A stretch of 31,637 nt of DNA from a virus (taxonomy: Duplodnaviria; Caudoviricetes): positions 1-31,637 of the IMG/VR virus record IMGVR_UViG_3300020044_002565, one strand, 5' to 3'. Below the pieces are notes generated by a model. It worked only from the letters and a program-made list of their open reading frames with translations, did no database searches and was not told the origin of the DNA. Shown here one piece after another: positions 1,022-31,219 of the stretch. The first letter of the stretch is position 1; each line of letters opens with the position of its first letter. Made by a program: the position numbers and the translations under genes.

Positions 1022-1208
1022 ATACAGACATTTTGGAACTTTAAAATATTGCTATACAGACAATTTTATTGACTTTTACGCAAATTACCCTGAAGTTAAA
1101 ATAAAAGAAAACAGGTTATTATTTAAAAAAGAATTTTATGAAAAAGTGCAACAAGTGCAAACAGAACTTGGATTGGGACAAATTCAGGAAGGACAGGCGA
1201 AACGCTGA
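1002..1208 (+). CDS. Hypothetical protein
   Basis: 68-aa ORF with TTG start filling the gap between genes. Confidence 0.45.
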   Translation: MKIYQIKYRHFGTLKYCYTDNFIDFYANYPEVKIKENRLLFKKEFYEKVQQVQTELGLGQIQEGQAKR

Positions 1209-7443: not shown

Positions 7444-7518
7444 CAATCATAATCGGTTCAGTTATCAATCAATTATGACTCGTTTATGACCGATATTCGG
7501 TTCTTTTATGACAGATAT

Positions 7519-7548
7519 ACCGTTTATCCTTATTATTTACCGTTCATC
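7519..7548 (+). promoter_or_regulatory. LytTR-type direct repeat (ACCGTTTATC-N10-ACCGTTCATC)
   Basis: 20-bp period, repeated at 28391-28420. Resembles the AlgR site ACCGTTCGTC. Confidence 0.65.
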
Positions 7549-7576
7549 ACATTTTTCAAAAAAAGATTAAAAAAGA

Positions 7577-7609
7577 TTTGGTTGGTAATGTGTAGAAGGT
7601 GTATATTTG
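7577..7609 (+). promoter_or_regulatory. Early promoter 1, Bacteroidota primary-sigma type
   Basis: TTTG (7577-80), N21, TATATTTG (7602-09). Near-duplicate of 28429-28460. Confidence 0.85.
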
Positions 7610-7630
7610 TGTTAACAAAAGCAAATAACA

Positions 7631-7864
7631 ATGACAACTTTAACTACACAAATGACAATCGGTTTTAAATTCCAAGTAAACGGAAAAAATTTCACAAAGT
7701 TAGTATGTAACAGAAACAGATTCGTTGACATTACTTTGGTTAACGATTTATACAACGTGAAAGCTTACACTTTGAAAGGAATTAACGAAACAAAAGTTTC
7801 TGAATTAAATGGTATCTTTATTGAAGATTTACAAAAAGCAATCGTAACAACTTACAACGCATAA
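7631..7864 (+). CDS. Early hypothetical protein
   Basis: First ORF after early promoter 1, with an A-rich initiation region. Confidence 0.8.
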   Translation: MTTLTTQMTIGFKFQVNGKNFTKLVCNRNRFVDITLVNDLYNVKAYTLKGINETKVSELNGIFIEDLQKAIVTTYNA

Positions 7865-7868
7865 TTTG

Positions 7869-7896
7869 GTCGCAGGGGTGCGACTGCTAAACGCAC
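7869..7896 (+). ncRNA. Conserved cis RNA element (candidate H-type pseudoknot), copy 1
   Basis: GCAG/CTGC and GTGCG/CGCAC interleaved stems. Second copy at 28701-28722. Confidence 0.6.
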
Positions 7897-7914
7897 ATTT
7901 TAAAACCTTAACTT

Positions 7915-8067
7915 ATGGCAAACAAATTAAAAACACCACAGGAAAAACATTTGGAATTATTAGCTGAACGTCAAAAGCAATACGCAAAAGAATCATTGGG
8001 TATGGGTTGGTTCTTCGCTATTATTACGGCGGCTTTATTGTTAACCGCTTTAATTGAAAACTTATAA
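7915..8067 (+). CDS. Small membrane-anchored early protein, 50 aa (not in ORF track)
   Basis: MANKLKTPQ...GMGWFFAIITAALLLTALIENL, with a C-terminal transmembrane helix. Confidence 0.7.
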   Translation: MANKLKTPQEKHLELLAERQKQYAKESLGMGWFFAIITAALLLTALIENL

Positions 8068-8068
8068 T

Positions 8069-8236
8069 ATGCCATTTTCAACTTGCTGCGGTGCGCATAC
8101 CAATTTTCCCGAAATAGACATTTGCCCTGATTGCTTAGAACATTGTGATTGGGAAGACGAAGACGAAGAAGAATTGGAAGCTGACCAAGAAACAGAAAAC
8201 AAAATTGACCAAGCTAAAATTGATTCAAATGCCTAA
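8069..8236 (+). CDS. Small Cys-rich acidic protein
   Basis: STCCGA...CPDCLEHC followed by an acidic tail. ATG at 8069. Confidence 0.7.
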   Translation: MPFSTCCGAHTNFPEIDICPDCLEHCDWEDEDEEELEADQETENKIDQAKIDSNA

Positions 8237-8390
8237 ATACTACGAATTAAAACAGACGACTTTAATGGAATTGGAAATTGAAGGTTTGATTGAAAAAATT
8301 AAAAAACTTGAAATTACAATAGGAATTAAAGAACAGGAAATAAAACAATTAAAAATGCGTATCTTAGCAATGGCAGACATTAACCAATAA
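8229..8390 (+). CDS. Small coiled-coil protein
   Basis: ATG at 8229 overlaps the previous stop. Heptad pattern. Confidence 0.65.
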   Translation: MPKYYELKQTTLMELEIEGLIEKIKKLEITIGIKEQEIKQLKMRILAMADINQ

Positions 8391-8393
8391 TAT

Positions 8394-8459
8394 TGTCCCC
8401 GTCCAATTCAACAATCATTTTTAAACAGGGGTGTTTAAGTTATGTCACGGGCGGGGATA
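8394..8459 (+). ncRNA. Intergenic structured RNA (candidate sRNA or processing element)
   Basis: 11-bp outer stem TGTCCCCGTCC/GGGCGGGGATA enclosing the hairpin TTAAACA-GGGG-TGTTTAA. Confidence 0.55.
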
Positions 8460-8477
8460 TTTTAAAAGCTTATAACA

Positions 8478-8837
8478 ATGATAACAAACTTTGAATTCCT
8501 GACAAAGGAAATGACCGACGAAGAAAAAAAGTTAGTGCCTATCCTAATAAAAGGATTTAACACGAAGACAAAAGACAACCCAATTAAAGCGCCTGAAATA
8601 GTACAGGCAATCAATGATAAACGCGAAAGTTTAGGTTTGAAATCTAATTTTTCAGAAGTTAGGTTGCGTAAAATTGTTAACTTTATACGTGCAGAAGGGA
8701 TTTTGCCGCTAATAGCTACGTCAAACGGTTACTATTGCAGCAAAGACAAAGAAGAAATTAAAAGTCAAATTGAAAGTTTAACACAACGCGCAGACGCAAT
8801 AATGTCAAGTGCTAACGGATTAAATAAATTTTTATGA
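8478..8837 (+). CDS. Putative winged-helix DNA-binding protein
   Basis: PIKAPEIV...SEVRLRKIVNFIR...LIATSNGYY pattern. Confidence 0.6.
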   Translation: MITNFEFLTKEMTDEEKKLVPILIKGFNTKTKDNPIKAPEIVQAINDKRESLGLKSNFSEVRLRKIVNFIRAEGILPLIATSNGYYCSKDKEEIKSQIESLTQRADAIMSSANGLNKFL

Positions 8838-9070: not shown

Positions 9071-9731
9071 TTTAACCCTTTGGCAGTACCAACAATTAAT
9101 GCCTATAATTACCAACCCGAATAAGGATTGGACGGAATTGGACAAAGAAGTAAAATTATTGTCCGTAATTACAGGATTGACAGAATATCAGATTGACAGT
9201 TTAACGATTGAAGATTTAAAAGAACTGCGCAAAGATTTAGCTTTTTTAGACGAACCAATTGAAGGGAAGCCGGTTGACTTTATTGTTATCAATGGCAGGC
9301 GTTACCGTATGAATTACGATATTAAAAATATGCCGGCGGCGCGTTACATTGAAAGCAAGGTTTTCAGCAAAGATACATTGGCAAACCTGCACAAAATAGC
9401 TGCGTCAATGGTTATTCCGCAAAAAAAGACTTGGTTTGGCAAATGGGTTGACGACAAATACGACGCGAGCAAACACGAAGATTATGCTGCGGATATGCAG
9501 GAAGCTAATTTTATACACGTTTATCATTCGTTGGTTTTTTTTTATCAAGTATACAGAAATTGGATAGAAGTTTCGCGGGATTATATGATTCGGGAAATGA
9601 CGACGACGGGAATGACGACAGAACAGGCGGCGGCGGTGGTTCAGCTTTTATGCGAATCTACGGGTGGCATTATACCGCCAAACTTGTTGCCGAACACCAA
9701 AATATCAGAACTTCAGAAGCTTTTGAAATAA
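9057..9731 (+). CDS. Putative tail assembly chaperone (0-frame product)
   Basis: Contains the slippery GTT TTT TTT TAT at 9534-9545 and an overlapping -1 ORF. Confidence 0.65.
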   Translation: MKWNNLTLWQYQQLMPIITNPNKDWTELDKEVKLLSVITGLTEYQIDSLTIEDLKELRKDLAFLDEPIEGKPVDFIVINGRRYRMNYDIKNMPAARYIESKVFSKDTLANLHKIAASMVIPQKKTWFGKWVDDKYDASKHEDYAADMQEANFIHVYHSLVFFYQVYRNWIEVSRDYMIREMTTTGMTTEQAAAVVQLLCESTGGIIPPNLLPNTKISELQKLLK

Positions 9732-9814: not shown

Positions 9815-9850
9815 GGCAGTTGGTTTTTATTGTTATAAGCAAAAGGAAGA

Positions 9851-9876
9851 AGACCCCGTTTTTTAGCGGGGTTTTT
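9851..9876 (+). terminator. Rho-independent terminator
   Basis: AGACCCCGTT-loop-AGCGGGGTTT with T run. Confidence 0.85.
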
Positions 9877-9904: not shown

Positions 9905-9911
9905 CTATTTA
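9905..9911 (+). promoter_or_regulatory. Putative late promoter CTATTTA, 5 nt before ATG
   Basis: TTTTGGCTATTTA is shared exactly with 19316-19328 and follows a terminator. Confidence 0.65.
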
Positions 9912-9916
9912 TAGGT

Positions 9917-16254: not shown

Positions 16255-16276
16255 ACGATAAATATTAAAAATTAAA

Positions 16277-16283
16277 CTATTTA
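16277..16283 (+). promoter_or_regulatory. Putative late promoter CTATTTA, 5 nt before ATG 16289
   Basis: Same motif and spacing as 9905 and 19322. Confidence 0.6.
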
Positions 16284-16288
16284 TGATT

Positions 16289-18565: not shown

Positions 18566-19087
18566 ATGGCGTGTGCATTAACACAAGGATATTCTTTAGA
18601 CTGTCGCGATAGTTTAGGCGGGATTGTTGAAGTGTATTTTACTGAAGCTGCCAACGTAACTACAACAACTGAAGCAAGCGGTGTTATTACTGCTTTGACT
18701 AAGGCTGCGGGGAAACGTTTTTGGAAATATGCTTTAGTTAAAGATACTTCAATGTTCAACCAAACAATGAATGCTTCTGTTGCAAACGGAACTGTATTCT
18801 ATGCTCAAGAACTTCAGATTGTCCTTAACAAATTACAGACCAATACAAGAAATGAATTATTGTTATTGGCACAAAATAGCTTAGTTGCAGTTGTAAAAGA
18901 TAGCAACGGAATCTATTGGTATTTAGGAAAAACACGCGGTATTGACTTAACTGCAAATGCAGCAAGTACAGGTACTGCGCAAGGTGACAGAAGCGGTTTC
19001 ACTTTAACTTTCACAGGTTCTGAACCTGCATTAGCGCCAAGTGTTACTTCAGTTATTGCTTTGGCATTAGAAACACCGGGTTCTTAA
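18566..19087 (+). CDS. Major tail tube protein (putative)
   Basis: MAC.LT.G..LDCRDSLGGI, NGTVFYAQ, GDRSGFTLTF pattern in 173 aa. Confidence 0.7.
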   Translation: MACALTQGYSLDCRDSLGGIVEVYFTEAANVTTTTEASGVITALTKAAGKRFWKYALVKDTSMFNQTMNASVANGTVFYAQELQIVLNKLQTNTRNELLLLAQNSLVAVVKDSNGIYWYLGKTRGIDLTANAASTGTAQGDRSGFTLTFTGSEPALAPSVTSVIALALETPGS

Positions 19088-19117
19088 TAAGCTTGTTTTT
19101 CATAGGTTTATAGGTTT

Positions 19118-19150
19118 GCCGCCGTTCCTTAATTGGTTCGGCGGTTTTTT
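19118..19150 (+). terminator. Rho-independent terminator
   Basis: GCCGCCG...CGGCGGT with T run. Confidence 0.8.
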
Positions 19151-19151
19151 A

Positions 19152-19320
19152 TGTTACAATTTTATATAAATATGTGACAAAGTAAAGCTAAAAGTTTACT
19201 TTTAATGTAACAAAGTAAAGGCAAAACTTTACTAAAATGTGTCATAAATTGCACTTTTTGATGCATATTTTATACATATAAGTCAAATTTGATTATAATA
19301 TGCAACAAATTGCACTTTTG
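19152..19320. repeat. Array of imperfect palindromes and direct repeats
   Basis: TGTRACAAAGTAAAG-N6-STTTACT twice and AAATTGCACTTTT twice. Confidence 0.7.
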
Positions 19321-19321
19321 G

Positions 19322-19328
19322 CTATTTA
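19322..19328 (+). promoter_or_regulatory. Putative late promoter CTATTTA, 5 nt before ATG 19334
   Basis: Same motif and spacing as 9905 and 16277. Confidence 0.65.
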
Positions 19329-19333
19329 CTTAT

Positions 19334-28505: not shown

Positions 28506-28694
28506 ATGAAAAATGAAACAATGAGTTTCAAAGAAATTCAAAAGCTTTGGAATTCACAACACTTTCTTGAAAGGCTTGTATTCTTGATGAACAAATTAAA
28601 AGTTTTACAAGATGAAGCTGAAAATTTATCAGAATTAGAGTTTAAAAAACTTCCTGATAATTACAAGGTTCAAATTTATCAAGTATTAAATTAA
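28506..28694 (+). CDS. Early hypothetical protein
   Basis: First ORF after early promoter 2. ATG at 28506. Confidence 0.7.
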   Translation: MKNETMSFKEIQKLWNSQHFLERLVFLMNKLKVLQDEAENLSELEFKKLPDNYKVQIYQVLN

Positions 28695-29196: not shown

Positions 29197-29219
29197 ATTT
29201 ATAAACCTAAAACAAACCT

Positions 29220-29840
29220 ATGAAATTAGTAAAAATTCAGGCGGAATTAAAAGCGCCCAAAGGACAATTAAACAAATTCGGCAATTACCGTTACCGCAGC
29301 GCCGAAGATATTATTGAAGCGGTAAAACCAATACTGCACAAAAACGGTTGCGCGTTAATTATAACCGACGAAATTGTGCAGGTTGCTGACCGTGTTTATG
29401 TAAAAGCGACGGCGGCAATATTTGACCAAGACAATATTGACTTTCAATTTACTGCGCACGGTTGGGCGCGTGAAGAAGAAGTAAAAAAAGGAATGGACGC
29501 CGCACAAATAACCGGGTCAGCTTCTTCTTATGCCCGCAAATATGCGCTAAACGGACTGTTTGCAATTGACGATACCAAAGACGCAGATGCAACAAACGAA
29601 CATAAAGACGAAGTCGGGAATGACAAACGTTTATATTTGTTAACTTTGTTGGAATCCACTACATACGACGAACAGGCAAAAGAAAAGTTGGCTATTCGTA
29701 TTGAAGCATTAACAACAAAAGAATCATACGACAAAGCTTTATTAAACCTGCAATTAAACCAAATACAGGACAAAGACCGTATTGCAATGGGTATGAATTA
29801 CAATCAAACAGACATTAAGAAAACAACAAAAACAAAATAA
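29220..29840 (+). CDS. erf: ERF-family single-strand annealing recombinase
   Basis: NKFGNYRYRSAEDI..AVKP and AQITGSASSYARKYALNGLF.IDD.KDAD. Confidence 0.9.
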   Translation: MKLVKIQAELKAPKGQLNKFGNYRYRSAEDIIEAVKPILHKNGCALIITDEIVQVADRVYVKATAAIFDQDNIDFQFTAHGWAREEEVKKGMDAAQITGSASSYARKYALNGLFAIDDTKDADATNEHKDEVGNDKRLYLLTLLESTTYDEQAKEKLAIRIEALTTKESYDKALLNLQLNQIQDKDRIAMGMNYNQTDIKKTTKTK

Positions 29841-30235
29841 TGCGCGAATATACCATTGAAGAATTAACGAACAAAGCGGAACGAATGTTGGACTTTTTAC
29901 AGAAGCCATTACCTAAAAACGATACGCCTGATTATCACGATTCATTAATTAAACGTTTAGATACTTTAAATATTGCAATGACACAATCAGGTGAATACAG
30001 AACCGCCGCAGAATATAAAATTGAATGCGTTATTGACGGGGAAATTGGCGACAAAATAGGTGAAATAATGGACGGCAAACTTGCAACGTCAACTGTCAAT
30101 ATGTGGATAAAAAGCAAGGCGCGTGAATGGTCAAGATTAAAGAACGCATTTGACAGAATAAACGCTTCTTCAGTTCACCAAATAGACGCAATTCGTTCAA
30201 TTCTTAGTTGGGAAAAAGCCAAAATAAACCTATAA
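29840..30235 (+). CDS. Hypothetical helical protein
   Basis: 131-aa ORF coupled to erf. Confidence 0.75.
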   Translation: MREYTIEELTNKAERMLDFLQKPLPKNDTPDYHDSLIKRLDTLNIAMTQSGEYRTAAEYKIECVIDGEIGDKIGEIMDGKLATSTVNMWIKSKAREWSRLKNAFDRINASSVHQIDAIRSILSWEKAKINL

Positions 30236-30238
30236 AAA

Positions 30239-30454
30239 ATGAATCAAGAAACCTATCAAGATTACGAAAATGGAATGCAAAATTTGCTTCCAATGGAACG
30301 TCAAATGTTATTAGCAAAAGTTTACCATTATTGTTGGTATTCACCCGAAGCTTATCAGGAACTAAGCGCATACCTTGCAAAATGGGAAAATGAATGTGAA
30401 TTTAAAGCAGTATTTTTTAATCAGGAATCAGAAGATTCCACAAACCAAATATAA
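30239..30454 (+). CDS. Hypothetical protein
   Basis: 71-aa ORF. Confidence 0.7.
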   Translation: MNQETYQDYENGMQNLLPMERQMLLAKVYHYCWYSPEAYQELSAYLAKWENECEFKAVFFNQESEDSTNQI

Positions 30455-30691: not shown

Positions 30692-31123
30692 ATGAATGAA
30701 GAACTTAAAAACGAATTGGTGCAATGTTATAAAAACAGTTTATCAAGCTTAAAAATGATTCATAAAACGTTAGTAAGTGCGAAAGTTATAACAGAAGATT
30801 TTGCAGTTAGTAAAGGCGCAACAGACATTAAACCGCACAGATTGATTGAATTAGTACAGGACGTATTTGAAGCAGACGTTTTGGCTAAGAATAGGAAACA
30901 GGGTACAATCTTTGCGCGTAAAGCAAGTGCATATATTTTAAGGAAATATACACAATTGTCTTTGAACGAAATTGCGCCTTTAATTGGGGTCGGTGACCAT
31001 ACAACAGTTATTTACAATATTCAAACTGCTTCAGATTTAATTGACACAGAAGATTGGTACAAAGAAAAAATTGACCAAATTGAAGAAGATATTGAAAGTT
31101 TTAATAACTTTGTAAGGAAATAA
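30692..31123 (+). CDS. Stand-alone DnaA C-terminal (domain IV) HTH protein
   Basis: KNRKQ...ARK.SAYILRKYTQLSLNEIA..IG.GDHTTVIY matches the DnaA signature. No AAA+ domain. Confidence 0.8.
   Translation: MNEELKNELVQCYKNSLSSLKMIHKTLVSAKVITEDFAVSKGATDIKPHRLIELVQDVFEADVLAKNRKQGTIFARKASAYILRKYTQLSLNEIAPLIGVGDHTTVIYNIQTASDLIDTEDWYKEKIDQIEEDIESFNNFVRK
31105..31112 (+). promoter_or_regulatory. Bacteroidota -7 promoter element for the replication operon
   Basis: TAACTTTG just upstream of the structured leader. Confidence 0.6.
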
Positions 31124-31128
31124 GTAAA

Positions 31129-31216
31129 TGCGTTATGCAACAACGCAGTATCAAATATATTGGGTCAAGGGTTTTACAGGTAGTTGCATTGCCTGTTTGC
31201 CTGCGACCCTTTTTTT
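31129..31216 (+). ncRNA. Kissing-loop, terminator-like leader RNA of the replication initiator
   Basis: Hairpin loops ATGCAAC and GTTGCAT are perfectly complementary. The second hairpin ends in T7. Confidence 0.7.
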
Positions 31217-31219
31217 ATT

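Follow-up and report, generated by a model that had tools for sequence, protein, structure and literature searches.

A stretch of ~30 nt between the stop codon of a tail-tube-like gene (19085–19087) and a terminator in a phage of the class Caudoviricetes raises the question of whether the tail of a structural mRNA can carry a regulatory sequence and, if so, against which mRNAs it would be directed. The window, that is, the whole stretch of DNA analyzed here, is an entire phage of 31,637 bp (94% complete) in which all called genes lie on the + strand. Genes for terminase, tape measure, protease, a capsid-like protein, portal, tail spike and endolysin precede an early block that includes Erf and a replication initiator. 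A tail-tube identity for the 173-aa product is predicted and supported by gene position and by the fold of its model (pLDDT 63.9), which aligns with the tail tubes of 80alpha (Z 7.0, rmsd 4.0, 118 aligned) and SPP1 (Z 6.6, rmsd 4.2, 116 aligned), both under the caution line of the structure tool (Z 8); the top row of the comparison is a hypothetical protein (Z 7.3). Nonlabens phages, at 28% identity, were the only cultured relatives found. MAG bins holding close homologues are labeled Chitinophaga, Chitinophagaceae and Sediminibacterium, with one fragment in a Pseudomonadota bin; from these bins alone, the probable host family is Chitinophagaceae.

Layout of the element and its matches within the genome

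Table 1. Coordinates of the features that bear on the tail-gene 3′ UTR (positions in the window)
Feature	Position	Strand	Basis or remark
Tail-tube-like gene, 173 aa, whose mRNA bears the element	18566–19087	+	ORF; PHROG 19091 (unknown function); fold
FopS-type seed (predicted)	19094–19108	+	Identity over 12 nt to the 5′ end of FopS-10 and over 15 nt to promoter-driven sRNA-like genes in the probable host family
Seed core, anti-CTATGAAAAA	19096–19105	+	Sequence, conservation
Clade-specific extension	19106–19117	+	Complementary to AAACCTA boxes ahead of start codons; similar to second FopS block
Intrinsic-terminator-like hairpin and U-tract, putative RNA end	19118–19150	+	Hairpin 19118–19145, U-tract to 19150; same position in homologues
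erf start region, best predicted own target	29200–29225	+	−20.9 kcal/mol; 12 bp across AUG plus 7–10 bp upstream
Erf-like ssDNA annealing protein gene	29220–29840	+	PHROG 155, E 3.1e-44
Start region of 71-aa early gene, predicted target	30224–30241	+	−18.8 kcal/mol; match upstream of AUG
Start region of 50-aa gene at 7915, predicted target	7885–7932	+	−18.8 kcal/mol
ATGAAAAA start of 53-aa zinc-finger/endonuclease-like early gene	1137–1145	+	11 bp AUG-anchored pairing
ATGAAAAA start of 62-aa early gene	28506–28513	+	11 bp AUG-anchored pairing
Second terminator-proximal UTR and hairpin, outside the element	9815–9876	+	U/G-rich, no CAT seed, variable

The first-pass annotation had read the UTR as antisense to early gene starts, and the complementarities on which it relied were all recovered exactly as described. 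Positions 19098–19109 are the exact complement of 29214–29225, 12 nt that span the erf ATG at 29220; 19111–19117 complements the AAACCTA box at 29203–29209, a match that grows to 10 nt with its flanks (29200–29209); and 19107–19117 complements 30226–30236 (11 nt), 2 nt upstream of the ATG at 30239. The 23-mer quoted there (19096–19118) is followed by the terminator hairpin. Taken within one genome, these matches beat chance only marginally: dinucleotide shuffles of the UTR gave a match of at least 12 nt inside start regions in 113 of 3000 cases (p ≈ 0.04) and anywhere on the + strand in 499 of 3000. Folding predicts that a local hairpin half-buries the seed in this genome (core unpaired probability 0.52). 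We rejected this structure as a conserved upstream hairpin because it is predicted for this genome's variant alone and its bases differ in most relatives. Also rejected was TAGGTTTG (19111–19118) as a −7 promoter box, which fits the consensus here and is not retained across clades.

A second UTR, at 9818–9840, had been taken as a sign of a recurring design. The sequence there (9815–9845) is complementary over 12 nt to the start at 8478. It contains no CAT seed in this genome and varies freely among relatives, and clades C and D are without it; in these genomes, a spacer of 4–7 nt precedes the terminator of the capsid gene. This UTR is no evidence of a repeated design within the genome, and that part of the proposal is not supported.

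Other features of the genome are recorded here in their own right. A late-promoter-like motif, (C/A)TATTTA, lies 4–14 nt before structural-gene ATGs (9905–9916, 19320–19333 and 16270–16288) and was counted in 31/31 cases for the 9917 family and in 19/28, 18/30 and 15/29 for three others; this placement suggests near-leaderless late mRNAs. Inside the 9057–9731 gene, 9530–9548 consists of a G with at least nine T, followed by ATC, and is kept in all seven genomes checked; the neighboring frame is open from before this run to 9814, resembling the programmed frameshift of tail-assembly chaperones. An extended hairpin with a U-tract end (31124–31219) directly precedes the replication-initiator gene in several clades with its inner stem conserved, and is a possible attenuator; the gene ahead of it (30692–31123) resembles the DnaA C-terminal domain. 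The spacer past the tail-gene terminator (19151–19320) contains short imperfect direct and inverted repeats, and the distance from the tail-gene stop to the next start ranges from 95 to 632 nt among relatives.

Conservation of the core and its likeness to FopS

We gathered 233 tail-gene loci and dropped nine that were too short, leaving 224. TTCAT occurs within 50 nt past the stop codon in 191 of these (53 of 61 distinct UTRs), the exceptions being clade D and the Nonlabens phages, and the core sits 0–12 nt after the stop, just ahead of the terminator. Across 778 pairs of loci at ≤80% protein identity with the core present in both, identity reaches 0.97 in the 10-nt core, compared with 0.49 at four-fold sites and 0.44 in the next 6 nt. 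It is because the core is conserved in relatives that the matches exceed chance, and on this comparative evidence the UTR core is a strongly selected anti-start-codon sequence rather than a chance occurrence. Among distant homologues (~30% identity), TTCAT is found in 10 of 41 distinct UTRs, and six control 5-mers in 1–6 of 41. With UTRs folded from the stop codon, the mean unpaired probability of the core is 0.81 and exceeds 0.7 in 41 of 52; mean accessibility drops to ~0.6 once coding sequence is added to the fold. Clade D (L129–L146, G017, G019 and G040) harbors, in place of the CAT seed, a G/U-rich UTR complementary to A-rich leaders, and its late-promoter motif differs too.

The closest known counterpart is FopS of Bacteroides thetaiotaomicron, which the available part of PMC11697453 describes as a set of 14 paralogous sRNAs in which a terminator follows a single-stranded seed at the 5′ end. 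According to this source, FopS-10 blocks translation through pairing at the start of susC, and compensatory mutations gave rescue; one member derives from a 3′ UTR and one copy resides in a Caudovirales phage. Bases 2–13 of the FopS-10 transcription primer given there are identical to 19094–19105 (12 nt), a stretch that natural FopS homologues also share, and the published inactive FopS-10 mutant oligo differs within this core, among other places. As far as the source goes, the phage element resembles FopS in this identical 5′ seed, in the intrinsic terminator that follows and in complementarity across start codons; unlike FopS, it lies behind a phage structural gene, has an unrelated terminator and no σABfr promoter, and its probable hosts are Chitinophagaceae, not Bacteroidaceae. 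Moreover, the FopS targets reported are mRNAs for exported proteins, whereas the predicted targets of the phage seed include the phage's own early genes.

Natural FopS homologues were found in 17 of 121 genomes (~80 bits on RF04319 for the four tested), and TAnnTTTG was present 3–5 nt upstream of the 5′ end in 30 of 30 Bacteroidales FopS loci inspected. Their consensus comprises two blocks with six bases between; the phage UTR has block one and then an approximate block two without the 6-nt spacer, block two being exact in clade B1. An RF04319 search of the 31,637-bp genome gave no match at the UTR (gathering threshold, 56 bits); the clade B1 UTR is the best RF04319 match of its genome, at 19.4 bits and E 0.025, under this cut-off. 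When we used our own model, built from 26 FopS homologues, the UTR ranked first in the genome (11.8 bits, E 1), and host-family copies scored similarly. FopS is a multicopy feature, and this genome holds one seed-plus-terminator copy only. A TAnnTTTG promoter at FopS spacing is absent here; 73 of 98 phage contexts have none, and in the promoter-bearing ones the gap is 0–4, compared with 6–9 in bacterial copies. Because the promoter at FopS spacing is missing, the phage RNA must be an mRNA tail or a processed product. In RNA-run contigs of relatives, which are unstranded and of small shares, one passes through the terminator and others end at varied places. Judged by its seed and layout, the element would be FopS-like, yet it is no formal FopS member, and the 12–15 nt of identity may reflect either common descent or convergence on the commonest start sequence.

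Two further groups of RNAs invite comparison. GibS, in the accessible portion of PMC7366714, has an R1 seed in common with FopS and likewise pairs around start codons of SD-less mRNAs, but is a 145-nt intergenic, host-encoded RNA with two seeds and its own promoter. Phage regulatory RNAs, for which our source is part of the review PMC12197685, include P22 sar, lambda OOP and aQ, PreS, VpdS, StxS and PAK_P4as15. These also tune phage or host translation by base pairing, and differ in being cis-antisense or separate RNAs, often Hfq-dependent, with specific targets in phages of Proteobacteria. None of them is described in that portion as a structural mRNA tail bearing an anti-start-codon seed in common with a host sRNA family, the review makes no mention of "Bacteroid-", and our literature searches returned no report of a FopS-type seed on phage late mRNAs. 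The first-pass annotation had gone too far in putting the element forward as a candidate undescribed system, given that the seed and architecture are those of the characterized FopS and GibS sRNAs (PMC11697453, in the part available).

Similar loci occur on chromosomes of the probable host family. A complement search there returned called gene starts, by a simple rule, in nine of 33 fetched matches, and many of the others lie behind a hairpin with tiny frames, corresponding to seed plus terminator on the opposite strand. Promoter-plus-seed loci gave 28 matches in 18 of 41 genomes, compared with six for a reversed control; a terminator hairpin follows the seed in 19 of 21 inspected, and one type of these sRNA-like genes carries the 15-nt identity listed in Table 1. 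Two apparent promoter-driven FopS-like sRNA gene families are seen on Chitinophagaceae-family chromosomes (L764–L782, family of G041; L368, L373, L376, L386, L393, L399, L410–L413), with no Rfam match where tested. One of them sits behind a conserved gene for a 130–160-aa exported protein, itself preceded by a 302-aa gene; this may be an ECF anti-sigma-type operon, which NCBIfam did not confirm.

The arrangement is also widespread in viral sequences. Among the IMG/VR matches listed, seed plus terminator occurs in an estimated ~1000 stretches, compared with ~190 for a composition-matched control. Of 80 IMG/VR loci with flanks, 27 follow a member of this tail-gene family; a hairpin is present at a further 39. 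True hairpins were recognized in 94 of 119 test loci vs 45 of 120 control loci, the control being without flank. A PHROG scan of 25 upstream proteins assigned major head (3), terminase, portal, holin, endolysin, exonucleases (3), PAPS reductase and distant tail-tube homologues (2). In bacteria, a looser seed-plus-terminator form gave 16 matches, one of them on a phage contig, in 12 of 151 phylum genomes, with four for the control. The pattern GTGTTTTTCATAG was discarded, as across the phylum it marks mostly ordinary reverse-strand gene starts without a terminator. One bacterial genome has seed plus terminator directly behind its SRP RNA gene (L409:1391–1550).

Predicted targets among early, late and host starts

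Phage targets were predicted in 31 genomes (this one, 29 relatives and P12024S) with a simple gene model and a late list set against the rest. With CAT fixed on the AUG, in the 27 genomes having the seed, predicted pairing reaches at least 9 nt at 25.6% of the early starts (n = 771), compared with 7.3% of the late starts (n = 547) and 5.9% of the remaining ATGs (n = 18,334), such that early starts pair with the UTR far more often than late ones, as the reading of an early-gene repressor had implied. The contrast holds at the level of families (59 vs 33, p 0.010), and ATGAAAAA starts are found in 46 of 853 early vs 4 of 607 late genes, counts that come from related genomes and are not independent. 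Start-site optimization alone could account for this early–late contrast. Between the terminase and tail genes, 7486–8837 holds a cluster of small genes with early-type starts, which varies in content among relatives and includes frequent predicted targets.

On the host side, four bacterial genomes contributed 800 kb of sequence; two belong to the probable host family and the other two to a phylum sample. ATGAAAAA is the most frequent start octamer in these 800 kb (28 of 598 genes), and 25 of these 28 starts are signal-peptide-like by a crude hydrophobicity rule, compared with 138 of 570 others. Anchored pairing of at least 9 nt is predicted at 19.6% of the signal-peptide-like starts (n = 163), compared with 5.5% of the remaining starts (n = 435) and 3.6% of non-start ATGs. 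Without anchoring, duplex energies at host starts are no better than in random windows of host DNA (−10.6 vs −10.4 kcal/mol), though stronger than those given by 20 shuffled UTRs. Host mRNAs with similar start regions, also posited by the first-pass annotation, do exist by these sequence predictions and would mostly derive from signal-peptide genes; this bias follows from the MKK start habit and is no sign of targeting.

Bacteroidota mRNAs are without Shine–Dalgarno sites. Since ATGAAAAA is also the most frequent start octamer of the host sample, a single short seed can reach the mRNAs of an entire functional class.

Readings of the element and their implications

We favor, with moderate confidence, the reading that initiation on AUG-AAA-AA mRNAs is blocked by the seed as exposed on the late capsid/tail mRNA or on a 3′ product processed from it. 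The seed would act at the RNA level, either within the abundant late transcript or after cleavage of a fragment from that transcript's 3′ end, and would pair across AUG-AAA-AA start regions to block ribosome loading. The phage's own early genes, erf included, would likely be damped and host mRNAs for exported proteins possibly repressed too, while late genes, mostly without such starts, would be largely spared. The sequence of the element, its conservation, its identity to the FopS seed and the bias in target class are direct observations, and a FopS-type seed represses translation in Bacteroides (PMC11697453, available part). That the phage RNA exists with its seed accessible, that it represses and which of its targets matter are what we infer. 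Overall, the element is best read as a broad, FopS-like anti-start-codon seed on a late mRNA rather than as an erf-specific antisense RNA.

A different role for the same sequence has a low but real probability: the FopS-like end might recruit or titrate a host RRM protein of the RbpB type, which would stabilize the tail-tube mRNA or free host FopS-like sRNAs, with little direct repression. RbpB CLIP peaks map to the 5′ portions of FopS and RbpB antagonizes FopS, as the available part of PMC11697453 has it, and we detected RRM_1 genes in all five bacterial genomes tested, four of them from the probable host family. Protein binding would also account for the fixed core in clades without targets of their own, and a free sRNA would be unneeded. 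However, the micromolar affinity and broad AU-rich preference given for RbpB in the same source call for no invariant CAT, and this explanation leaves aside both the variable extension that tracks erf starts and clade D, where the UTR is different and, in G017, matches its own erf leader over 12 nt.

It is unlikely that the UTR evolved solely to silence erf and a few neighboring early genes. erf is the top predicted own target here and among the top five in many relatives. For erf, chosen in advance from the first-pass annotation, own UTRs were preferred to others at p 0.011 over six clades and at p 0.042 without clade A, to which this genome belongs, and among 24 families scanned an exonuclease gene alone outdid it (p 0.006). 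Clades B1 and B2 have UTRs that differ in one base, and a 250-aa gene common to both shows the corresponding difference at its start. When nine UTR types were crossed with nine genome groups, own-genome preference was weak (p 0.042) and negative for C1 and C2. All of these tests rest on 6–9 related clades; an ERF search of 39 further records added three usable close relatives and no new clades. Dedicated self-regulation fits poorly with several observations. The invariant anti-ATGAAAAA part reaches past erf, whose second and third codons do not match the anti-AAAAA arm; the erf context varies inside clade A under a constant UTR; the erf match is lost in G040 (−7.1 kcal/mol) and modest in clade E (own duplex mean ~−11.5 kcal/mol); clades C1 and C2 keep the seed without erf or strong own targets; and the same seed is present in host chromosomes. 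The data are better explained if early genes belong to a broad class of targets, with a degree of tuning, than by a dedicated pair. Hence the earlier anti-initiation proposal survives in part: on sequence evidence, a selected anti-start sequence does appear to lie on a structural 3′ UTR, and erf starts track it loosely across clades, but a design specific to erf and the gene at 30239 is not supported.

Still less probable is a function of the minus strand, either through a DNA-level protein site or through an antisense transcript that enters the tail gene and bears a small ORF or a site for ribosome loading. The reverse complement does offer a hairpin and a strong Bacteroidota start context, of which A at −3 and −6 are determinants (PMC6847099, accessible part). 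A conserved antisense peptide was nonetheless rejected, as reverse-strand frames vary in length between 3 and 96 codons and are spread over every phase with respect to the tail gene (22/16/14), and both the U-tract, which marks a + strand terminator, and the promoter of bacterial copies, upstream on the seed strand, speak for the other strand. Least probable of all, and largely refuted by conservation far above synonymous sites and the core's own flanks, is a generic terminator-proximal U-rich sequence or chance without pairing function, which can appeal to the weak significance in this genome alone, to the 31 of 41 distant-homologue UTRs without TTCAT (many plain U-rich) and to the similar look of the 9815–9845 UTR, but not to the roughly five-fold excess over the composition-matched control among the IMG/VR matches listed or to the mere few nucleotides ahead of the capsid-gene terminator.

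Building on the favored reading of a broad anti-start-codon seed, we tentatively raise the possibility that Bacteroidota phages mimic host FopS-type sRNAs by placing a seed on the 3′ ends of abundant late mRNAs. Such an RNA-only late switch would silence the class of MKK starts, comprising early phage genes and host envelope and receptor genes, and late starts would have evolved to escape it. If active, the element would represent a protein-free switch, from early to late expression and for host takeover, carried on a structural mRNA and widespread in aquatic phages, and it would take FopS-type regulation beyond gut Bacteroidaceae into Chitinophagaceae, a family with promoter-driven candidates of its own.
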